A stretch of DNA of 11,571 bases from a virus. The position numbers and the translations under genes are program-made. A model generated the notes under the pieces. The model was not told the origin of the DNA and searched no databases. It worked only from the letters and a program-made list of their open reading frames with translations. Below are positions 58-11,571 of the stretch, one piece after another. The stretch lies in the UHGV virus genome UHGV-0116702. The stretch is one strand, 5' to 3'. The stretch's first letter is position 1, and each line of letters starts with the position of its first letter.

Positions 58-1720
58 AAGGTCTAAATACACTATGAGGATGATTAGGGGTTGGTAGATG
101 ATTCGGATGAAGCATCCTCATTACAAGACCAACTATAGAACTACCTGTTAATAACAGGACAATATCAGGTGAATCCCTATTCAATTTAAAGGCATTTTCC
201 CAAGTATCTAAGCAGTTTTACACAGATTCTATGCAGTATCGGTATAGTCTCTTTTTACCCTAACTTATTGAAATATATAGAGAATCTGTGAAGTCTCTTT
301 TCAGGGAACTATGCAGGGTGTTAGTCGTTCCTCTCTCGACCCTTAGAAAAGTGCTATATACAGGACTATATAACGCTATTCATGCAGTTGGTCACCATAT
401 GTTACAGTTGCAAGAGATAACAATCAGCTATGTGAAAGTTAGGAAGTGATGGTTACAGTTGATTCGGTTAGTTCTAGGAATCAACCTCATAGTTCCTTCG
501 TAGTTCCTCTTAAAAAATCACTTACAGACACCTTAATATCTATACAGATTTCATGTAGAACACGATTAGTGCGTAAAACAGCTATTATGTTAAAAACGCA
601 CTGTATACGTATCAGTACTGATTTATAAGGGTTTTGTGTATTGGATGATAAGAGGCTATGCAGCACCTTGAGAGCATGTCTTCTAAGTCATTGATACATA
701 AGGTCACAGAAGTTTGTGTCTGTTACAGAGAAAACTGGATAGGATTTCACAGAACTATAAAATGTTACAGCTATTGATAGGTTAAATCTTCTTGATAGAT
801 GCTTTGAAGTGTGGTGAAGGTTTCTTGAGGTGGAGCTAAACAGATGCTATGAAGAAAGTCAATGATATTTTAACTGCTTTTGCAAAGGGGGTGCTATATC
901 GTGAATCTGGGGTACTTAACAGCCATCAATTGAGTGTAGATATTTTTTAAGATTATCGGTGAAGGGGAATGTAGAGGGGGGTACTACGATTTTTATAAAA
1001 ATTTTCAGACTCTGAAAAGTTGCTGTACAGATTTTGCACAATCTTACCAAGCCTCATAGAAAGCTCTGTAGCGAGTTTTAACCCCATTTTTAGGGGTAAC
1101 CTGTAGGTATGTACCACCCACCTTAAAATAAAGGGGTAAAATCGCTTAGAATGCGTTACAGAGCGTCTGAGAAGCTATATTCACAGATTTTACTAAAACC
1201 TCAGACTTTCTAAGTGGTCTTTTTAACAGGAGGGGTTCCCCTATGGTCACATATCCCCTCTCTCGCTTAGTGAGCTACACAGACCTAGAGAACATGCTCT
1301 GTAACGCCTTCACAAACATTGACTAAGGTCAACTTCATAAACTCAGAGTTAAGTTACCTTGAAAGATTCTACCAAGAAACTACACAGGTATTATTTAGTC
1401 TGACTGTGAAGAGATGTTTAACGGGAGGAAGAGAACCATGAAAACCGAAGGTAGGTTCTATCTTAACAGTGACTGTAAGAGATACCTGAAAAGATACTTA
1501 ACAGAACTACCAAGAAGAGAGGGAACGATAAAACCAGAGGTAGTGACCTTGTTAAGTAGGTCGTTTCAAAGTCTCTTAAAAGTCTGTTAAGTAAGGGCTA
1601 TGTGAACAATCTTACCATTTTGTCAATGCTTTTGTCTTTGACCTAAATCAATAAAATGTATCGTTTGATGTGCTTTTAAACAAAATAGCTAAAAAATCTT
1701 TTTAGAGGGGCGCTTCGCTT
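58..1720. other. ORF-poor, motif-dense non-coding region (candidate ori / ncRNA / regulatory hub)
   Basis: The six-frame track shows only one 60-aa ORF in 1.66 kb, and it has no RBS. Region contains the conserved box copies at 1063-1075, 1145-1171 and 1296-1308, recurring CTGTGAAGAG and TTACAG/TTAACAG motifs, and a 17-bp perfect palindrome TTTTCAGACTCTGAAAA at about 1003-1019. Confidence 0.5.
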
Positions 1721-2389: not shown

Positions 2390-2428
2390 AATTCTCATAT
2401 AGAGCACTGATTACGAGAATGTTAAAGA

Positions 2429-2462
2429 GGCGATTTCCCCTTTCTGGGGTTATTCGCTTTTT
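2429..2462 (+). terminator. Candidate intrinsic terminator downstream of the methyltransferase gene
   Basis: GGCGATTTCCCCTTTCTGGGGTTATTCGC: nested stems GCGA/TCGC and CCCC/GGGG, followed by TTTTT at 2458-2462. Confidence 0.4.
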
Positions 2463-2597
2463 ACTGGAAGGGTTATTTTACAGAGGTTTTTCAAACCCCC
2501 TCAATAATAGAAACGAGCAACAAACGAAGAGCGAGAAATAAAATATTGAGACTGGTGAACGGGGTCTGTAAAGATTGTTTAAGGGGGCAGTTAAGAA

Positions 2598-2630
2598 GGT
2601 GGCTCTCCCTTTCTGGGGTTATCGCCTTGT
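2598..2630 (+). repeat. Second, degenerate copy of the CCTTTCTGGGGTTAT hairpin motif
   Basis: GGCTCTCCCTTTCTGGGGTTATCGCC shares an ~18-nt core with the hairpin at 2429-2462 but has a weaker T-tract (CTTGTATCTT). Confidence 0.35.
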
Positions 2631-2654
2631 ATCTTAGTGAGTCCAGGAAGTTCT

Positions 2655-2835
2655 CTGTGAAGAGTCTTGTCAGTCCTTTATATTGGGTGATTACAACTCA
2701 TTGAAAAATAAGTGTTTTTAGAATTTACTGTTAAGGTTACAGAGTTAACTGTGAAGAGACTTGTCAGTTCTCTATATATGGCTAATTACAACTAATTGAA
2801 AAATAAGAACTTTTAGAAATTACTGTCAGAGAGGT
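2655..2835. repeat. Two tandem ~94-bp direct repeats (about 85% identity over ~75 bp)
   Basis: Copy 1 starts CTGTGAAGAGTCTTGTCAGTCC at 2655; copy 2 starts CTGTGAAGAGACTTGTCAGTTC at 2749. Both contain ATTACAACT, ATTGAAAAATAAG and TTTTAGAA-TTACTGT. The CTGTGAAGAG head also occurs at 1403-1412 and in variant form at 286-295 and 1468-1477. Confidence 0.6.
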
Positions 2836-2946
2836 GAATACTTGATAGATACAGCTTTCCGGTTCTGTCAAGCTATTTTTTCATAGATAGCACAAAATGC
2901 TAAAGATACCCCTATACCATCTCGTACAGGGGATTTTGGAGGGAGT

Positions 2947-3123
2947 TTAACGGGGGTCTGTGTGGTCATTATCCTTAAGGTCAAGCGTCCATGTATGACC
3001 GAACAGTTTAAAGACAACAAGCACTCTGACAAGGACGTAACGAAGTAGCAGACCTGCAATAAGTCCAATACCTCCACCAGCCCATACATCAGGTGACCCC
3101 AGTTCAGGAGGGAGATTTACCAT
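2947..3123 (-). CDS. Hypothetical small membrane protein (58 aa, one predicted TM helix)
   Basis: ATG at 3123-3121 preceded by AAGGA with 6-nt spacing on the minus strand. Product MVNLPPELGSPDVWAGGGIGLIAGLLLRYVLVRVLVVFKLF... has a glycine-rich hydrophobic stretch. The track ORF 2947-3165 is the same frame extended to a TTG. Divergent from the 3421 operon. Confidence 0.3.
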   Translation of the reverse strand: MVNLPPELGSPDVWAGGGIGLIAGLLLRYVLVRVLVVFKLFGHTWTLDLKDNDHTDPR

Positions 3124-3136
3124 TAGTTTTCCTTGT

Positions 3137-3235
3137 AAGACGCTCTCAATCGCATTCTGACACAAAAAGTACCTGACCTTATGAGTTGACCTTAAGAGGC
3201 TGTTTAACTCGTTACAGAGCGATTGAAGAGGTCTG
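3137..3235. repeat. Inverted-repeat-bracketed element, copy 1 (conserved left and right arms, divergent interior)
   Basis: Left arm AGACGCTCTCAATCGCATTCT (3138-3158); right arm CTGTTTAACTCGTTACAGAGCGATTGAAGAGGTCTG (3200-3235). Arms are imperfect reverse complements sharing GCGATTGAG and GTCTG. Interior contains a doubled TGACCTTA. Confidence 0.55.
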
Positions 3236-3341
3236 TGTGCAATGCAATAACCATGTGACCACTCTCATAGCCACGCCTTTATATTTTACTCTCCCCATAG
3301 AACCATTATACCATAGATGTTAATAAATTGTTAAAAAATGC

Positions 3342-3370
3342 TTGACATTAGTCTTTGAAACTGCTAGTAT
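3342..3370 (+). promoter_or_regulatory. Candidate sigma70-type promoter for the 3421-4658 operon
   Basis: TTGACA (3342-3347), 17-nt spacer, TAGTAT (3365-3370); A/T-rich upstream tract TTAAAAAATG; about 50 nt upstream of the ATG at 3421. Confidence 0.45.
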
Positions 3371-3420
3371 TGTACATATAAGTTAACAGAGAATTAACAA
3401 TTATAAGGACTAGCTTATGA

Positions 3421-3900
3421 ATGAACGACAGAGAATTTAGAGCGATGCTTCAGGCATCAAGAGAACGCAAAGGCATTGACGAAGTAATTCGGGCAATTAC
3501 ACCGAGGAGTCGTTATATGCCAACCAGAAAGAGCACCCAGAACACTATTAAAAATTATTTGGCTAACTTCGACAGCTACGAGCAACTACCAAGTAAGCTT
3601 GATGATATTTTCATTGGATTCTGTAGAAGTGAAGGCCACCCGAAATACAACAAAAAACTATTTTATCTTCTAAAGAATCTTGACGAAATTAACTCAGCTA
3701 CCGTGACAAATTATCTTCAGCGACAAGCAACCAGACTTAGTTATGAATTACCAAGCGATAAATATTGTGCATTGCTTGCTGTAATGTGTGCAAAGCTAAT
3801 TGGTATTGTTGAACATCATATTGCCGTTGGTAATATTGAGCCAATGGAAAACGAGCAACCAGACTTTGAGTTTGACCCGTATATTTTGGAGGAATTTTAA
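3421..3900 (+). CDS. Hypothetical protein (159 aa) with acidic C-terminal tail
   Basis: ATG with AAGGA SD about 11 nt upstream; first gene after the candidate promoter; ends ...ENEQPDFEFDPYILEEF. No family recognised by eye. Confidence 0.6.
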   Translation: MNDREFRAMLQASRERKGIDEVIRAITPRSRYMPTRKSTQNTIKNYLANFDSYEQLPSKLDDIFIGFCRSEGHPKYNKKLFYLLKNLDEINSATVTNYLQRQATRLSYELPSDKYCALLAVMCAKLIGIVEHHIAVGNIEPMENEQPDFEFDPYILEEF

Positions 3901-3901
3901 A

Positions 3902-4183
3902 ATGAAAAACAAACACACATTAACCCGCATTTCAGAGGAAGCTTTTAACGAGCTTACCAGAATTAAACGAGCTACTAACTTGCCTCATCAAACTGTAATG
4001 CAGCTTGCAATTGCTAAAGAGGTTACTGAGTCGGATTTACTGAAATATCCAGTCTCTAAAGGTCGTAAACACATCCGAATTAGTCAGGACGCTTTAGCTA
4101 CTTTGAAGGCGCTTAACGGCTTTAAGATTGATATTGCCCGTCTATTGAGTCTTAAAATTCACAAGCTGTCTCTGGAGGTCTGA
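3902..4183 (+). CDS. Hypothetical small protein (93 aa), possibly DNA-binding
   Basis: ATG at 3902 lies 1 nt after the upstream stop, with GGAGGA about 12 nt upstream. Preferred over the track's TTG start at 3800, which overlaps the upstream gene. Two internally similar segments (TLTRISEEAFNELTRIK / KHIRISQDALATLKAL) suggest a repeated motif; the DNA-binding idea is speculative. Confidence 0.55.
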   Translation: MKNKHTLTRISEEAFNELTRIKRATNLPHQTVMQLAIAKEVTESDLLKYPVSKGRKHIRISQDALATLKALNGFKIDIARLLSLKIHKLSLEV

Positions 4184-4458: not shown

Positions 4459-4658
4459 TGCTATGTATTAAATTCGAATATTTGACAGATAAAATGATTA
4501 AGCATGTATCAGACCTGCTCATCAAAGAAGATGGTTTCGGTGATGTTTGCAATCCAAAAGATATCTTCATTCACGCCACCAGCCCAAATGAAACACTGAA
4601 AACAGCAGTTACAGCGGAATGGTTTGAACGAAATAAAGTAGAATTAGGCTATTGGTAG
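4458..4658 (+). CDS. Hypothetical protein (66 aa)
   Basis: ATG overlaps the upstream stop (TAATG) with GGAG 5 nt upstream, indicating translational coupling. Track ORF 4425-4658 is the same frame from a TTG inside the HNH gene. Confidence 0.5.
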   Translation: MLCIKFEYLTDKMIKHVSDLLIKEDGFGDVCNPKDIFIHATSPNETLKTAVTAEWFERNKVELGYW

Positions 4659-4692
4659 TCCGAGACTTTAAGAGAAATTAGAAAAACAGCTT

Positions 4693-4816
4693 CTCAGACG
4701 CTCTCAATCGCATTCTAACGCAAAAAACTATCTTATTTTAGGGTGGGTAATACCACTGTACAGGCTACCCCTGAAAAAGACTGTTTAGCTCGTTACAGAG
4801 CGATTGAGGAGGTCTG
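4693..4816. repeat. Inverted-repeat-bracketed element, copy 2
   Basis: Left arm CAGACGCTCTCAATCGCATTCT (4695-4716); right arm CTGTTTAGCTCGTTACAGAGCGATTGAGGAGGTCTG (4781-4816). Arms are nearly identical to copy 1 (right arm 35/37) while the interior differs in sequence and length. Ends 22 nt before the ATG at 4838. Confidence 0.55.
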
Positions 4817-4837
4817 GTAAAAAGGAGATTTTAGGAA

Positions 4838-5262: not shown

Positions 5263-5291
5263 TTGACAAATAACCTTGAGCATGACATAAT
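5263..5291 (+). promoter_or_regulatory. Candidate sigma70-type promoter
   Basis: TTGACA (5263-5268), 17-nt spacer, CATAAT (5286-5291). The track's 67-aa ORF 5263-5466 begins inside this -35 hexamer. Confidence 0.4.
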
Positions 5292-5481
5292 TGTATATAT
5301 GAGGATAGTCTTCTATCCGAAGTCTATGAGGAGAGCAATTCTCTCTTATTTTCTTTCAATAATCCGATGGATGGATATTCTGAGTTGGAAAGGTGCAATG
5401 CTTTTCGTCATGGCCTTTCAGTTTAGTCTGAGAGGCTATCTCAAAAAGTGCTTAATCATTCATTGAACCCTTTACAGCTTT

Positions 5482-5708: not shown

Positions 5709-6419
5709 ATGACAAACGATTTATATATTAACGGTAAAAAGGTTGATAGCTTCGGTGACTGGTCGCCACAGACTGAACATCCAGCTATCACTATCCAGCG
5801 TAAAGAACATGATGAAAGAATTGCACTTGAGCAAGAAATCCGAATGTCACCAAAGGTAATTACCTTTGTAGCTCCTGAGCCTCAAGAGATGCCTGATATT
5901 TGCAAAACTCAAGCATTACTTGAGCTTGAGCGTGAATATTACCCACTGCTGAAAGCACAAAGAATTAAACTTGATATTGCTTACGACAATGTGAAGAACT
6001 TTGAAGAGACTGAAAAGCCAACTGATTTTGATATTGAAGTGGAAATTAGACAAAACCCATTCGTATATTACTCAGTTGAGGATAATGATGGTTTTGGTAC
6101 AGCAAGAGAGAATATCTCAAAAGTTCTTCAAAACATCCCTGAAGGATTCCGTTTAATTGATGTTAGACCAGCTTCACGCGGTACAGGTTCATATATTTTA
6201 CTGTCTGATAAAACAGATGAAGAGATTTGTCAGTTAGCTGAAAAGAATCTACTTGAGCGTCATAGCAAAAAATTAAACAGATTTAAGCAAGAACTTGCTA
6301 ACCAGCTTCAGGCTATGAAAGACCTTATTTCTGCATATGAAACGCAGAAGAAGGTTGCTATGCAGGCTGATATTGAGCAGTTAGTGAAGATTTCTCAGAA
6401 ATACGCAAAGGCACTTTGA
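5709..6419 (+). CDS. Hypothetical protein (236 aa), acidic with helical C-terminal region
   Basis: ATG about 10 nt after AGAGGA SD; long uninterrupted ORF; no family recognised by eye. Confidence 0.65.
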   Translation: MTNDLYINGKKVDSFGDWSPQTEHPAITIQRKEHDERIALEQEIRMSPKVITFVAPEPQEMPDICKTQALLELEREYYPLLKAQRIKLDIAYDNVKNFEETEKPTDFDIEVEIRQNPFVYYSVEDNDGFGTARENISKVLQNIPEGFRLIDVRPASRGTGSYILLSDKTDEEICQLAEKNLLERHSKKLNRFKQELANQLQAMKDLISAYETQKKVAMQADIEQLVKISQKYAKAL

Positions 6420-6444
6420 CTATGAATTAAAAAGGAGGTGATGA

Positions 6445-6648
6445 ATGTTTGATTTAACGGAACGCTATGAACTTATTAAAGCAATTAGCGAGAGATTGAA
6501 AGAACAACCCAACAAACCAAAACGAATCAAATCATCCACCTCTAAACAAAATAACAGAATCAGAAAAATTGCTAAATGGTGTCTGGATAGATTACCAAGT
6601 GATTGTCAGATTGTCGGTGAAGATGGCAATTATTATCTGATTAGGTAA
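6445..6648 (+). CDS. Hypothetical small basic protein (67 aa)
   Basis: ATG 5 nt after AAAAAGGAGG SD; lysine/arginine-rich centre (KPKRIKSSTSKQNNRIRKIAKW). Confidence 0.55.
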   Translation: MFDLTERYELIKAISERLKEQPNKPKRIKSSTSKQNNRIRKIAKWCLDRLPSDCQIVGEDGNYYLIR

Positions 6649-6673
6649 AGAATTGGTTGGGTGAAAATCTACG

Positions 6674-6714
6674 GGAGAGATTATCGAGTGACATCGGTAG
6701 TTTCTCCTTTTTTT
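6674..6714 (+). terminator. Candidate intrinsic terminator
   Basis: GGAGAGA (6674-6680) pairs with TTTCTCC (6701-6707) with one G-U pair, then T7 (6708-6714). The 20-nt loop is long, so confidence is moderate. Confidence 0.4.
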
Positions 6715-6736
6715 GTATGTGTGCTACATGAAATCT

Positions 6737-6787
6737 GTAAAGCTAATATCCACACTGAAAAATAGAATTTACGTAGCTCACGCTTAA
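6737..6787 (+). repeat. Direct repeat A (51 bp, 38-bp perfect core) immediately upstream of the tape-measure gene
   Basis: GTAAAGCTAATATCCACACTGAAAAATAGAATTTACGTAGCTCACGCTTAA. Core 6750-6787 is identical to 9024-9061. Contains a -10-like TAGAAT with no good -35. Confidence 0.8.
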
Positions 6788-6804
6788 AGAGGTGAAAAAT
6801 ATGA

Positions 6805-8985
6805 ATGAGCAAATTCACAGTTGATAGTTTTATCGTTGAACTAGGCTTCAATGAAAACGTTATTAAGGGCTTGCAAAGAGTTGAAAAGGCAGCTTTGCAG
6901 TCAGCACAAAGAATTGAACGTAATTTGAATAGAGCGTTTAAGGTCGATACCAAGCAACTTGACAGCAACCTGACAAGTTCTTTAGGGCAACTTGAAAGGA
7001 AGTTTAATAAGACCTTTGACAAGATTGAACAGAGAGCAAGAAATACTAAAGCTTTCCAGTTTACCACCAGATTTAATGACACTGTTAATCCTCCAAAACA
7101 ACCGAGACAGCCACGAATTAGCGGCAACAGAGCAATCACAGCAGCGCATAGCGTGAATATGTCTAAGCTTGGTGATATTAATCCGCTGATGGCTAAAATG
7201 TTTAAAGCACAGTATTACAGCTTAAGCGGTAAGGCTGGTAATATTGGAAGTGAAAAGTTTAACGCTGAACTTGCAAAATTAAATCAATCTCTTCGTGAAA
7301 CGTTGAATAAACTCAGGTCACAGACAAAGACCACCAGCATTAACAATACAAGCGACGCATTTAATAATCTTGCAAGCAATGCAATCAAGTTATCTGGTGC
7401 ATTTTACTCTGTGATGGGTGCTCTTAACGCTTACAAGGCCATTATGAATGCAGGTCTTAAACGAGATTCCGCACAGAGAGCCGCTAAGTTTGTACTTGGT
7501 GATAAAGCATCTGAAGCTGAGGTATTTATTCGAAATTTAGCAGACAAGACAGGTCTTAATATCTCTGAAGGGCTATCAAGCTACGCTAAGTTTGCAGCAG
7601 GTGCTCAGGGTTCTATGTCACAGGAACAGACACAGGAGCTATTTGGTAATGCAACGGCTATGAGTCGCTTAATGGGGCTTTCTAACGATGAGCTAAACGG
7701 CATTTTGAAAGCATTTGAGCAGATGGCGAGCAAGGGCAAGATTCAGGCTGAAGAGCTTCGTGGACAGTTAGGTGACCGTATGGCTGGTGCATTTAAGCTA
7801 TTCGCTGAAGCATTGGGTATGACTGCTACAGAGCTTGATAAAGCGATGAAAGACGGGAAGATTTTAAGTAGTGATACTCTCCCTAAAGTCGCTAAACAGA
7901 TGGGCTTGATGATTGATAAAGCGGGTGGCTGGGCTGAAGTCGCTAAGAGCACTCAGACAGCTTTAGGGAAACTGGCTAACAACTGGGATGATACGATGGT
8001 GAAAATCTTCTCAGGTTCACAGGATGAGCTAAACGGCTTCTTATCCAGCCTGAGTAACCTGCTTAGTGAAATGGGGATGAGTTCATCTATCGCTGGTGAT
8101 GCTATCGGTGGACTTATCGACATGCTTAAAGCTGGTGTGGATGACATCCGTATCTTTAACAATCACCTTGAAGGCTGGATTCTACAGACTAAGAAGTTCT
8201 ATTACAGCCTTGATGACACTAAACGAAAACTACTTGATGAAGTCGGTGATGGTTTTATCAACTTCGTCAAAGGTCTTGCTATAGCGTTATCTGCAAAGAC
8301 ACTATTCAGTGCTGCTACAGGGGTTATAAACCTGACAAGAGCAATCACAACGTTAGGTACAAGAGCTAATCAGGTTGCTGGTCAGGTAGCTACTGGTAAA
8401 GGTGGTGGAAAACTGAAAGGTGTAGCTGGTGGTGTAGGTAGTGCTCTTGCAATTGGTTATGCTGATGACGGTTATGAAACAGCGTTAGCATTAGCTTCAA
8501 TGATTCCACAAATCAGAGGCGTCACTCTTGGTTTATATGCATTGAAGAAAGCACTGGATTTTATGAATCAGGAAGTAGTCAAAAACGCTAATATGCATCC
8601 ATCTGGGGTAGGTGTGGGTAGTGACTTTAATCCCGTGTATTCTGGTGACCCTAATAAACCGAATATGATTAACGAAGGATGGGGTAGAATTTTTAGTTCA
8701 ATGGGTGAATTGTTTAACAATGCCACAATGAATATTGCAAGATTCAATCATCCAGAGTTAAACAACATTAAGCAAGATTCAGCATTAACGAGTGCAGATA
8801 TTCAGAGTCTGAGGGATGAAATCTCTGCTTTAAGTAAGCGTATTCAGGAGCCTGTGAAAGTTTCCTTGGGTGGTGAAGTTGCCATTAAACCAGATGAAAC
8901 CAGCTTTATGACCTTTAGCAGTAATATCTACGACCAATATGCAGAAGCTACGCTATTAAGTTCATCATTCCCAGAAGATGATTGA
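6805..8985 (+). CDS. Phage tail tape-measure-domain protein (726 aa)
   Basis: N-terminal coiled-coil-like segment, then LNGILKAFEQMASKGKIQAEELRGQLGDRMAGAFKLFAEALGMTATELDKAMKDGKILSSDTLPKVAKQMG, which matches the conserved tape-measure core. Downstream there are glycine-rich hydrophobic stretches (ATGKGGGKLKGVAGGVGSALAIGYA). SD AAGAGG is about 13 nt upstream. Confidence 0.7.
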   Translation: MSKFTVDSFIVELGFNENVIKGLQRVEKAALQSAQRIERNLNRAFKVDTKQLDSNLTSSLGQLERKFNKTFDKIEQRARNTKAFQFTTRFNDTVNPPKQPRQPRISGNRAITAAHSVNMSKLGDINPLMAKMFKAQYYSLSGKAGNIGSEKFNAELAKLNQSLRETLNKLRSQTKTTSINNTSDAFNNLASNAIKLSGAFYSVMGALNAYKAIMNAGLKRDSAQRAAKFVLGDKASEAEVFIRNLADKTGLNISEGLSSYAKFAAGAQGSMSQEQTQELFGNATAMSRLMGLSNDELNGILKAFEQMASKGKIQAEELRGQLGDRMAGAFKLFAEALGMTATELDKAMKDGKILSSDTLPKVAKQMGLMIDKAGGWAEVAKSTQTALGKLANNWDDTMVKIFSGSQDELNGFLSSLSNLLSEMGMSSSIAGDAIGGLIDMLKAGVDDIRIFNNHLEGWILQTKKFYYSLDDTKRKLLDEVGDGFINFVKGLAIALSAKTLFSAATGVINLTRAITTLGTRANQVAGQVATGKGGGKLKGVAGGVGSALAIGYADDGYETALALASMIPQIRGVTLGLYALKKALDFMNQEVVKNANMHPSGVGVGSDFNPVYSGDPNKPNMINEGWGRIFSSMGELFNNATMNIARFNHPELNNIKQDSALTSADIQSLRDEISALSKRIQEPVKVSLGGEVAIKPDETSFMTFSSNIYDQYAEATLLSSSFPEDD

Positions 8986-9010
8986 TTTAACGGTGTTCTA
9001 CGTGAATAAA

Positions 9011-9061
9011 GCAAAGTTAATACCCACACTGAAAAATAGAATTTACGTAGCTCACGCTTAA
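9011..9061 (+). repeat. Direct repeat B (copy of repeat A) immediately downstream of the tape-measure gene
   Basis: GCAAAGTTAATACCCACACTGAAAAATAGAATTTACGTAGCTCACGCTTAA; 48/51 identical to 6737-6787, offset 2274 bp; lies about 80 nt upstream of the ATG at 9142. Confidence 0.8.
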
Positions 9062-9141
9062 CAGAGAAAATACTTATATATCAAAGGCTTGGTTAAAAAT
9101 GATTAAAATACACTAAGCCTTTGAAATCAAAGGAGAATTTA

Positions 9142-9930
9142 ATGATTTTTAGCAATCAAATCCGCTACAGTGGCAAAGATGGCGTTTACTTCCACTTAAG
9201 AGATAATGTAGATGCCTTCTTAACCTTATCAGCAACTGAGAACATGGAATTTGATAGCCCTATGCAGGTGACTACACAGAACATGCAATCAGGGCAAACC
9301 GTCACAGATAATGTGCAAAGAGCACCCAGAACAATCACTATTAGCGGTGTCGTTGTAGTTGGCTATGAAGGGAGCTTATTATTAACTCGTCAGGGTCAAT
9401 TAGTAGAGAACTTCATCGACACTCTTGAAAACTGGCGTGACCAGAAACAAATTATTTCGGTCATCTGTAAAGACGGAATTAAAATTGATGATTCCATTAT
9501 CACAAGTTTTAAAGCCTCTAAAGATGTTGGAATTTCAAACGGATTAAGAATCCAACTAACTTTTCAGGAAATTAACTTCAGAGCTGTTGTGGGGCAGACT
9601 GATATCTCGGCTGCAACTGGAAAAGCCGCGACTACGAACGATGGTGGTGTGACCAGTAAGAAGAATGCAGGTAACGTGACCACTGAACGCAATAACGCGC
9701 CTATGCTATCGTGCAAAGAGCTAATGAGTATTAGCGATGTATCCGGTTACGCTCCAGCTATCAGAAATGATATTCTCGATGCTCAGATTAAGTGTAATAA
9801 GGCTTGGAAGCTGGACTATTCAGACTTAACAGAAGCTGAAAAAACCAACGTCACCAATGCTAATAGTAACGCTGGTCGGGTAGCTTCAAAGCTTAAAAAG
9901 TACTCAGTGAACCCTCACAAAAAATACTAA
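9142..9930 (+). CDS. Hypothetical protein (262 aa); possibly tail-associated on positional grounds only
   Basis: ATG 6 nt after AAGGAG SD; the track ORF from 9121 is the same frame from an upstream TTG. Sits directly after the tape-measure gene, where siphophages usually encode the distal tail protein, but I see no diagnostic motif. Confidence 0.55.
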
Positions 9931-11450
9931 ATCTCTACTACATCAACATCTATTAAACCCCTCTCAGTGACTTCAGAAAGCGACTGTATAGCCTCTGTAA
10001 CGTCCTCTGAGGGGTTTTCTGTTATTGATAAGGTGATTGACTTACCATTGTGAAAAGTTACTTTACAGCGACGTTTAGCAGTATTTAAAACGACCTCTTT
10101 AACAGCACTTTTGATTATCAGTTGTGCTTCAATTCTCCCCGCCTTTGTAGTCAAGTCACAATCAGACAAACACCCCACATCAATAGATTTAAGGCGTTGT
10201 GTCTCCTTCTCGATATCCGCATCAACCTGTGATAGCTCACCTTTTAACTGCTTTAGTTTGATGGTAATAGCTGACAAATCTTCAATTTCAAGTGATAGCT
10301 GTACCAGCTTTTCAATATTGCTTGAGATGTGTTCACGGTGTAGCCTCAACATATCTATGGTATTCGTCGTATCGCTATCAAATCGGTCAAGACGAGATAG
10401 CAGAGTAAGCAATGTACCATCGGTTTGCTTACGTGAAAGTCCTTTAGCACTACAACGGTTTTCATTACGAAGAGGACAACGATAAATCCCGTTTCTTGTA
10501 TCACTAAAGCCTGTGATAATCAGAGCATGACCACATTCAGAACAACGGATAACACCTTTAAAGAGATTCACACTCAATGGTTTATCTGAAACAGACCTCT
10601 TTCCATAACGAGAATGTGATAGTTGTTGAACTTTGTAGAATGTTGTTTCATCTATAATTGCAGGATAATAACCAGCTATCTCCTCACAGCCTTTAGGTGT
10701 GAAGTAACCAATTACAGAGCGATTCTTCAGAAGGTCTTGTACTGAGGTTTGACCAAACTTACCAGCTTTATATTGGTTAAGCGTCTGGTGACCTTCATCA
10801 TTAAGAGTCCTGACAATCGCCCAGATAGATTTGCCCTCTAACCGTAGCTGAAAGCACCTCTTCACAGTTTCTACCTTCTCAGGTATTACAGAGAAGCTTT
10901 TACGGTCATCATTCAGCCTTAACCATGCAGGACAACGCCTAGAAATCTTGATACCAGCTTTAGCAGCTTCTTTCTTTGCATCCCATGCAGCTTGTATACG
11001 CTCAGCCTTACGTAATGATTCCTCATGCGCCCTTTGCATTATCAGAATGCTTTTAATCAGGGATAACGGGTCTCTTAAGCTTTCCTTTGTGTAATGTTCA
11101 CCATCGGACAAGGTGACTACATCTACACCAGAGCGAAGAATGTTTCGTAATAGCTCACTTGCTCGGTCTACGGCCTGACGTGACAAACGGTCTAAACTCT
11201 CGATTAGTAGTGTATCACCAGCTTTAACAAGCCCTTTCTCGATAGCGGTTAAAAAGTCACCTAAGCCACCTTTCAAGTGCTTACCAGTGAATCCACTCAC
11301 ACCTAAATCACGGAAGGATAAATCTTGGTCAAGGTAGTACTCAGGTTGAGCCTTAAGCCAGTCATTAACCATCTTAGACTGTCTGCGTAGTGAATCACCT
11401 CGGGATTGCTTCTCAGATGAAAACCTGATGTAAGAAATGGCACGTTTCAT
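9927..11450 (-). CDS. Large serine recombinase (integrase, 507 aa)
   Basis: N-terminal resolvase-type catalytic domain with the nucleophile motif YIRFSSEKQ and arginines in DRLSR; central recombinase region; Cys-rich zinc ribbon CSECGH...[11 protein letters not shown]; C-terminal coiled-coil-like segment. GAGGTG SD 4 nt before the ATG. Confidence 0.9.
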
Positions 11451-11476
11451 TGTTCACCTCAAAACTGATGCCCTAG

Positions 11477-11505
11477 ATTGTATCGTTTTAGATGGTGTAT
11501 TTAAA
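11477..11505 (-). promoter_or_regulatory. Candidate promoter for the recombinase gene
   Basis: On the minus strand: TTTAAA, 17-nt spacer, TACAAT, about 25 nt upstream of the recombinase ATG. The -35 is weak. Confidence 0.3.
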
Positions 11506-11571
11506 CGTGTCTAATAAAAATCACCCGATTAACGCCGCGCTGATGTAAACCGCGATTAAGCGTTTGTTCCT

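Follow-up and report, generated by a model that had tools for sequence, protein, structure and literature searches.

Two direct repeats in the virus genome UHGV-0116702, a stretch of 11,571 nt that was analyzed at its full length (hereafter the window), stand before two consecutive genes, one for a tape-measure protein (TMP) and one for a Dit-like baseplate protein (the hub gene). We lean towards reading each repeat as a 69-nt regulated promoter/operator cassette specific to one family of islands, in which a promoter with a -10 hexamer only would lie between operator-like arms, a reading based on sequence comparison. Taken alone, the repeat, a conserved regulatory cassette duplicated before two neighboring genes, is nothing out of the ordinary. 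Of greater interest is the island that carries it: the window holds a complete island of ~11.4 kb, situated in the E. coli gene yecE (a DUF72 gene) between yecN/cmoA and yecD/aspS, and by analogy it appears to be an E. coli counterpart, for Felix O1-type phages, of the PLE satellites of Vibrio cholerae.

An earlier note on this DNA had reported near-identical direct repeats of 51 bp with a perfect 38-bp core, and both were recovered (6737–6787 vs. 9011–9061, 48/51 matches; core 6750–6787 = 9024–9061, CCACACTGAAAAATAGAATTTACGTAGCTCACGCTTAA). A repeat search of the window and direct comparison of the copies showed that the repeat is longer than this, with a unit of 69 nt (6719–6787 vs. 8993–9061) in which 60/69 positions are identical (87%), and that the likeness ends on both sides of the unit (11/28 and 8/28 matches in the adjoining 28 nt). 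When ≤ 3 mismatches were allowed, a 27-nt core pattern had two occurrences in the window, against none in 200 dinucleotide shuffles. The placement before two consecutive genes also held. Copy 1 (6719–6787, plus strand) ends 17 nt 5' of the TMP start codon (6805), and copy 2 (plus strand), whose 69-nt unit starts 8 nt past the TMP stop codon (8983–8985), ends 80 nt 5' of the next ATG (9142). Copy 1 comprises the left arm core CTACATGAA (6724–6732), the -10-like hexamer TAGAAT (6763–6768), and the right arm TTTACGTAGCTCACGCTTAA (6768–6787), with a predicted transcription start at ~6775–6776. In copy 2, which spans 8987–9061 as a whole, the left arm TTAACGGTGTTCTACGTGAA (8987–9006) begins 6 nt before the unit and is followed by TAGAAT (9037–9042) and the inverted right arm (9042–9061), the predicted start being at ~9049–9050. 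Directly 5' of copy 1 lies the intrinsic terminator of the upstream operon (5709–6648), located at 6673–6716 on the plus strand and consisting of a 15-pair stem (6673–6708) and a T-run; it is kept in related islands, and because copy 1 follows it immediately, an independent start is needed there. A terminator scan of the window found none between TMP and copy 2.

In order to follow the element across relatives, a profile made from 8 copies was run over all fetched loci, which came from E. coli genomes, from IMG/VR contigs retrieved via the hub protein, from metagenome contigs retrieved via the arm pattern, and from Citrobacter and Salmonella loci retrieved via an unrelated island protein. This yielded 176 full-length copies in ~160 loci, all of them on the coding strand and upstream of either TMP (58) or the hub gene (118), with none elsewhere. 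The length was 69 nt in 170/176 copies and 70 nt in five, the last one being an aberrant 96-nt call, and the element ended 17–20 nt before the ATG, or 80 nt before it where a leader hairpin was present. Both copies were found in 35 of the 75 distinct islands with enough upstream sequence, and the hub copy only in 40; among the island-bearing E. coli strains are YD786 (NZ_CP013112) and RM9154-C1 (NZ_CP031353), the latter with both copies. The repeats therefore bracket the TMP gene in this window, as the earlier note had stated, but bracketing is not a trait of the family, since the hub copy is universal while the TMP copy occurs in about half of the related islands. Relatives differ at the TMP position, where the same terminator and the same Shine-Dalgarno sequence always enclose the full element, a remnant of 12 nt (ATGAACACTTAA), or no trace of it. 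The element or the island was present in 408–476 of 5,426 complete E. coli genomes (about 8–9%), with 505 element places in 408 genomes and none on plasmids (island context was checked in sampled loci only), and a degraded Shigella copy was the sole match in a contig scan of one genome per species. Related islands were also found in Citrobacter, Salmonella, and E. albertii. Sensitive blastn against 50,697 phage records gave no match to the element, an exact search of IMG/VR with the core gave no phage contig carrying it, and the complete SapYZU01 genome and ~25 Felixounavirus loci had neither the element nor the arm motif; with no match in phage records, IMG/VR, or a whole Felixounavirus genome, the possibility that the element is a copy of a helper-phage promoter was rejected.

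The 53 distinct 69-mers could be aligned without gaps, and the invariant or near-invariant positions were CTACGTGA (6–13), ATA (28–30), CA (35–36), AAAA (40–43), T45, A46, T50, T51, ACGTA (53–57), and CACGCTTAA (61–69). T45, A46, and T50 (TAnnnT) are fixed in 53/53 variants while positions 47–49 vary (TAGAAT, TATTTT, TAGATT, TAGTTT, TAATTT), so that with its free interior this stretch evolves as a -10 hexamer does. The same pattern holds in islands that were found through a protein and not through the element, and, although the search pattern dictated the arm columns in copies from metagenomes, it left the hexamer columns free. The interior of the element is otherwise mosaic, with three types of block A (14–30) and a few types of block B (31–52) freely combined between both positions. 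The description of the repeats as containing TAGAAT but no -35 was accurate: the hexamer is present in both copies, and the best match to TTGACA at 16–18 nt spacing is 2/6. The extended -10 (TGn) is likewise absent at the element, a consensus sigma-70 scan called no promoter there, and a regular-expression search over 6690–6810 and 8965–9085 for known promoter classes found neither TATAAATA nor TGT-N12-ACA. Of the canonical sigma-70 features, the element possesses the -10 (A at position 2, T at position 6) and lacks both the -35 and the extended -10. With a hexamer at 45–50, transcription would be expected to start near position 57–58, ~7 nt past the hexamer and inside the right arm; relative to this predicted start, the left arm occupies ~-53 to -44 and the right arm reaches from the hexamer end to ~+13. 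The view that the repeats are activator-dependent promoters of the -10-only kind fits the invariant TAnnnT, the fixed length, the constant spacing from the Shine-Dalgarno sequence and ATG, the terminator before copy 1, and the exclusive association with tail genes; the arms may bind either an activator or a repressor.

The arms are inverted copies of a ~20-nt motif, here termed motif M (CTACGT plus CACGCTTAA; left arm ...GTGnnCTACGTGAA, right arm TTYACGTAGCTCACGCTTAA). Copy 2 has TTAACGGTGTTCTACGTGAA as its left arm and TTAAGCGTGAGCTACGTAAA, read on the opposite strand, as its right arm, and the conserved sequence of the right arm is ACGTAGCTCACGCTTAA. Since it is their sequence that is conserved, with no sign of compensatory changes, the arms look like sites recognized by a protein, i.e., operators. 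The word CTACRTRAA occurs five times in the window (0.5 expected), and the fifth occurrence belongs to a third copy of the element, diverged and inverted, which was absent from the earlier note (~496–569, minus strand). This copy begins with motif M (CTAATCGTGTTCTACATGAA, 569–550), continues with the block A-like AATCTGTATAG, and has a diverged right half. It is kept at the same position in at least 20 islands, in some of which it forms a perfect palindrome (ATCTACGTAGAT), and is nearly full-length in Citrobacter islands. The third copy points leftwards, out of the island; in the excised circle, by pure inference, it could read over the attachment junction towards the integrase gene (start at 11450, minus strand; region 11450–11571) and provide circle-specific control of the integrase.

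Between copy 2 and the hub gene, a conserved leader hairpin of 11 bp is found (9073–9132, plus strand; arms AAAGGCTTGGT / ACTAAGCCTTT), in which the islands differ in ways that remain compatible with G.U pairing on the plus strand. The sequence CCTTTG of its 3' arm could pair instead with the Shine-Dalgarno sequence CAAAGG (9128–9133) and so act as a translational switch. A second hub allele (~33 loci) has no leader hairpin, and there the element ends 19 nt before the ATG.

Counted from the predicted starts, the leaders would be ~30 nt long for TMP and ~90 nt long, and structured, for the hub gene. In the proposed mechanism, the upstream operon would stop at the terminator, and the cassette would give each helper-derived tail gene a switchable transcription unit of its own. 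A DNA-binding protein occupying the arms, at ~-50 and +1, would either silence the tail genes until a helper of the Felix O1 type infects the cell or bring RNA polymerase to the -35-less promoter; the site over the predicted start suggests repression, and the missing -35 suggests a need for activation. A reasonable candidate for the protein that binds the arms, offered as a guess from a structural model, is the 93-aa product of an open reading frame (ORF) at 3902–4183 (plus strand), modeled as a tandem ribbon-helix-helix (RHH) protein after weak hints from its sequence. The AlphaFold2 model, computed with an alignment of 20 homologues, reached a predicted local distance difference test (pLDDT) score of 90.8 (43 for the single-sequence model) and contains strands at residues 5–11 and 55–61, each followed by two helices (beta-alpha-alpha twice). 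The top Foldseek matches in the PDB were DndE, chains of the F-plasmid relaxosome, and AvtR, a regulator of an archaeal virus. DndE and AvtR are tandem RHH proteins, and the relaxosome chains, which are unnamed in the Foldseek output, we take to be TraY, of the same architecture. The strand residues of the 93-aa protein are invariant among its homologues, as are the arm cores of the element. Searches of the small island proteins against Pfam, PHROGs, NCBIfam, and PADLOC gave nothing above threshold. If the proposal is true, the RHH regulator would hold TMP and the hub gene silent via operators at -50 and +1 and would release or activate them upon helper infection. The cassette would offer an obvious experimental handle on when, and by what, the tail genes of a satellite are switched on, with the invariant arms serving as bait for the regulator.

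Several points weigh against the promoter/operator reading. Promoter activity and the start site are predictions, and on its own, a -10 hexamer accompanied by an A-tract carries little weight. The invariance of the arms rests on the smaller, unbiased sets of copies, in which single changes occur (CTAACGCTTAA, CACTCTTAA). The TMP copy is missing from about half of the islands although these keep the terminator, which implies that TMP can be expressed, or left unexpressed, without the element. As the helper-type phage genomes that were checked contain neither the element nor the arm motif, there is no link to a helper-encoded factor. For the candidate regulator, the fold matches are modest (E ~0.05, probability 0.9–0.99, TM score 0.5–0.6), and nothing ties the RHH protein to the sites in the element.

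It is unlikely that the arms are protein-binding sites without a promoter role (e.g., a roadblock, a nucleoprotein scaffold, or a replication or packaging signal) and that TAnnnT is incidental. Such sites would agree with the arms being the most conserved part of the element, with the location of the third copy far from the tail genes, and with the richness of the non-coding island DNA in short words resembling those of a gene-free region in a helper-type phage. Nonetheless, the strict orientation and position before start codons in 176/176 copies are hard to explain without a role in the expression of the downstream gene, and the absence of the element from the helper phage speaks against a packaging or replication mimic.

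The element could also act as RNA, with the arms forming a 10-bp stem around a ~35-nt loop in read-through transcripts, and with the stem or the leader sequence GCUCACGCUUAA serving as a processing, stability, or small-RNA target site that coordinates TMP and hub expression. The intergenic RNA does fold better than shuffled sequences (z = -3.7), its minimum-energy structure includes the arm stem, transcription probably covers copy 2 since no terminator separates TMP from the hub gene, a candidate small RNA lies downstream of the promoter at 5263–5291, and in PLE a small RNA, SviR, binds tail-gene transcripts of the helper (PMC12987554). We nevertheless regard an RNA role as rather improbable, a little more so than binding sites without a promoter. 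The 53 variants show no covariation: paired cells amount to 83.3% vs. 82.9% in shuffles, the covariation score is 0.082 vs. 0.080, each of the five observed measures is reached by 166–449 of 500 shuffles, and changes at the stem base are uncompensated. In addition, the conserved TAnnnT has no explanation at the RNA level, copy 1 sits after a terminator, and Rfam contained no matching family. Antisense pairing of the right arm with 1583–1606 (inverted repeat I15; 22/24 pairs including G.U) was considered and rejected, as a 1-nt indel breaks the register in most islands.

The promoter at 5263–5291 is the strongest sigma-70 promoter of the window (TTGACA-17-CATAAT with TG), and downstream of it lie a hairpin module (TATGAGGATAGTCTTCTATCCGAAGTCTATGAGG) and a terminator (5329–5347). 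Within the segment 5263–5355, these signals predict a candidate small RNA of ~55 nt. Other islands have copies of the hairpin module on either side of the pre-TMP terminator, those on its 3' side lying between it and TMP.

We consider it very improbable that the repeats are recombination sites, used by a serine recombinase or by frequent homologous exchange, which make the TMP gene deletable, invertible, or swappable. Direct repeats do flank a single gene, the island encodes a large serine recombinase (and some relatives also a small one), each element has dyad symmetry in the manner of att and res sites, and TMP alleles are very divergent; moreover, a near-identical segment shared by the window and the related locus L003 begins shortly before element 1 and extends to element 2. 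Against this, half of the islands have one copy only, and although the islands are highly mosaic, breakpoints fall inside TMP at least as often as at the element, L003 being the only comparison with a block bounded by both elements. The suggestion that the repeats delimit a deletable cassette found no support in the E. coli genomes: a synthetic deletion junction, made of the sequence 5' of copy 1, one element, and the sequence 3' of copy 2, was covered (≥ 80% of the query) in 0/476 island-bearing genomes. The companion suggestion of an exchangeable cassette, for which variants with a different gene between the repeats were to be sought, failed as well, as TMP preceded the hub gene in 96/96 loci and no other gene ever took its place. 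Local alignments of the element with the island ends scored 7–10, which is the level of shuffles (mean 9.5, maximum 15), and with no likeness to the island ends a pseudo-att site of the island integrase was rejected.

Nor are paired copies in one island more alike than copies taken from different islands. Mean identity was 0.80 for two copies within an island, and 0.81 and 0.78 between islands for the same and the other position, respectively; as within-island identity equals between-island identity, gene conversion between copies (concerted evolution) was rejected. Copies of the same island matched at 45–67 of 69 positions in 34/35 two-copy islands (the remaining value of 30 reflects a length offset), a range in which the 60 matches of the window are unremarkable. 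Perfect identity over 38 bp had been taken to imply either recent conversion or strong constraint, and the family data speak for constraint and not for conversion, with 21/38 positions invariant family-wide and the rest made up of a few shared haplotype blocks; the perfect 38-mer is explained by these invariant positions together with a shared block B haplotype. An element of the miniature inverted-repeat transposable element (MITE) type, i.e., a selfish repeat of ~75 bp with inverted ends of ~20 bp starting with TTAA, would account for the terminal inverted repeats, the small size, and the filled, empty, and internally deleted versions of the pre-TMP site in relatives, but is the least probable reading, since filled and empty sites differ without target-site duplication, copies are confined to the island family and to two or three fixed positions in it, and none occur elsewhere in E. 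coli chromosomes or plasmids (with only sampled loci checked for island context).

Among known systems, promoter/operator cassettes of this kind can be set beside the late promoters of P2 and its satellite P4 (Psid, PLL, PF, and others), which are activated by Ogr/Delta and have a usable -10, a poor or absent -35, and a conserved dyad-symmetric upstream element near -55. The island shares with them the association of a satellite with late morphogenetic genes, the -10 without a good -35, and an upstream conserved element. Unlike these promoters, the element lacks TGT-N12-ACA and has its boxes at ~-50 (CTACGTGA) and over the start (YACGTAGCTCACGCTTAA), the latter site being more typical of a repressor operator; furthermore, P2 and P4 share the late-promoter motif, whereas the helper here is without the motif of the element. 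Promoters controlled by RHH proteins (Arc/Mnt of P22, CopG, TraY at F oriT/PtraY, and AvtR) resemble the cassette in the short repeated boxes that flank or overlap the promoter, and the island has an ORF with a predicted tandem RHH fold, but the arm spacing of 46 bp from center to center is much larger than in a classical RHH operator. The -10-only layout is also that of -35-less promoters of the T4 type (middle promoters with a MotA box at -30, late promoters with TATAAATA), where it serves timed expression in the infection by a virulent phage. The element differs from T4 late promoters in having no TATAAATA, and from T4 middle promoters in that no MotA box consensus was visible in the alignment (inspected by eye, with no dedicated search).

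The island as a whole invites comparison with the PLE satellites of V. cholerae, which offer a precedent: expression of their TMP and hub genes is late and confined to ICP1 infection, and the products take the place of the helper's proteins in chimeric tails (PMC12987554, PMC13060381). The late tail operon of PLE, switched on by ICP1 infection, comprises its own TMP, a tail chaperone, and the baseplate hub BhuB. Elements of the PLE kind have so far been reported in vibrios only (PMC9410903). The island was found to have the same organization, i.e., an integrated chromosomal island with a large serine recombinase, long ORF-less stretches, a small HNH nuclease gene, and its own TMP and hub genes related to those of a virulent myovirus (PMC12987554, PMC13060381, PMC9410903). 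It differs from PLE in its hosts (E. coli, Citrobacter, and Salmonella) and in being associated with Felix O1-type phages, in the far greater closeness of its tail genes to those of the helper (73% identity for the hub, with patches of 88–95% at the nucleotide level, vs. 20–41% for PLE), and in having no recognized tail chaperone. The likeness is one of organization. The literature yielded no description of a PLE promoter that could be set beside the cassette, and literature searches found no published account of a tail-gene satellite of Felix O1-type phages or of E. coli. It is a tentative possibility, which we rate well below the cassette reading itself, that the family represents apparently undescribed, widespread PLE-like satellites of Felix O1-type phages, with the 69-nt cassette acting as a chimeric-tail switch under the tandem-RHH regulator of the satellite and the third copy coupling the signal, in the excised circle, to expression over the attachment junction towards the integrase gene. 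Because Felix O1-type phages are used in Salmonella and E. coli typing, biocontrol, and therapy, a common island with the potential to hijack their tails, or to sabotage them, would matter in practice.

By its genes, the island looks like a mobile island of E. coli that parasitizes Felix O1-type phages. Its TMP gene (6805–8985, plus strand; 726 aa, PF20155) and its hub gene (9142–9930, plus strand; 262 aa, PF21821) are akin to adjacent genes of Felix O1-type virulent myophages (Felixounavirus), with nucleotide patches that are 87–95% identical. The TMP has an overall identity of 33% to its Felixounavirus counterpart, rising to ~75% in the N-terminal 50 aa and ~70% in the core, while the hub protein is 73% identical to the product of the gene 3' of TMP, its N-terminal ~180 aa being near-identical. 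In the phage, TMP and the downstream gene are 18 nt apart, with no repeat-like sequence between them. That some patches are 88–95% identical to phage DNA at the nucleotide level suggests that the islands and Felix O1-type phages keep exchanging sequence. In the comparison of 6805–9930 with related islands, TMP fell into at least two alleles that are unalignable over the central and C-terminal parts, and the hub gene combined a helper-like N-terminal domain with a variable C-terminus. The right end of the island is occupied by the large serine recombinase, i.e., the integrase (9927–11450, minus strand; 507 aa), and its attachment junctions are unlike the element; related islands use other attachment sites (yciI/tonB and wrbA) with other recombinases. 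Many of them carry an extra small serine recombinase of 189–190 aa in the left arm (e.g., 932–1501 in L006, 1867–2436 in L010, and 7106–7675 in L166), which the window does not have and which adjoins the third element copy in Citrobacter islands.

Further features were noted in the left half of the island. The ORF at 1721–2389 encodes a phage-type N6-adenine DNA methyltransferase (PF05869) fused to a C-terminal helix-turn-helix of the resolvase type (PF02796), an unusual pairing, and was classified as an orphan methyltransferase by PADLOC. On the minus strand, a strongly hydrophobic ORF of 73 aa (2868–3089), which may encode a small membrane or toxin-like peptide, has a good upstream promoter on that strand (TTAACA-18-TATAAT with TG, 3334–3305) that is divergent from a promoter at 3342. 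About 3 kb of the island is ORF-less and rich in repeated words (60–1720, 2400–3420, and 4658–4837). The word TTACAGAG is present 10 times in the island against ~0.35 expected (an estimate for uniform base composition), and GTTACAG, TGTTAAG, and CTATATA are also enriched. A gene-free region of 1.66 kb in a Felixounavirus (MT409176.1, 81272–82933; L009) contains related words (TGTTAAG 14 times, CTTGTTA 11 times, TTGTTAG 7 times, plus CTGTAAAG), and weak blastn patches join it with the word-rich island DNA, which may mimic a cis-acting region of the helper, such as an origin, a packaging signal, or a regulator array. At 2649–2826, two tandem units of ~94 nt (families D3 and D10) each have TTGAAAAATAAG...TTTTTAGAATTTAC followed by words resembling TTACAGAG. 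These units have the 10-mer TAGAATTTAC (TAGAAATTAC in the second unit) in common with the 69-nt element, and could be paralogous -10-only promoters or origin iterons. Finally, a non-coding module with the core CGTTACAGAGCGATTGAGGAGGTCTG is repeated at 3132–3235 and 4690–4816, and also at 1146–1207 (families D4 and D7, inverted partner I1); it sits 5' of the operons starting at 3421 and 4838, and its halves are partly complementary to each other.

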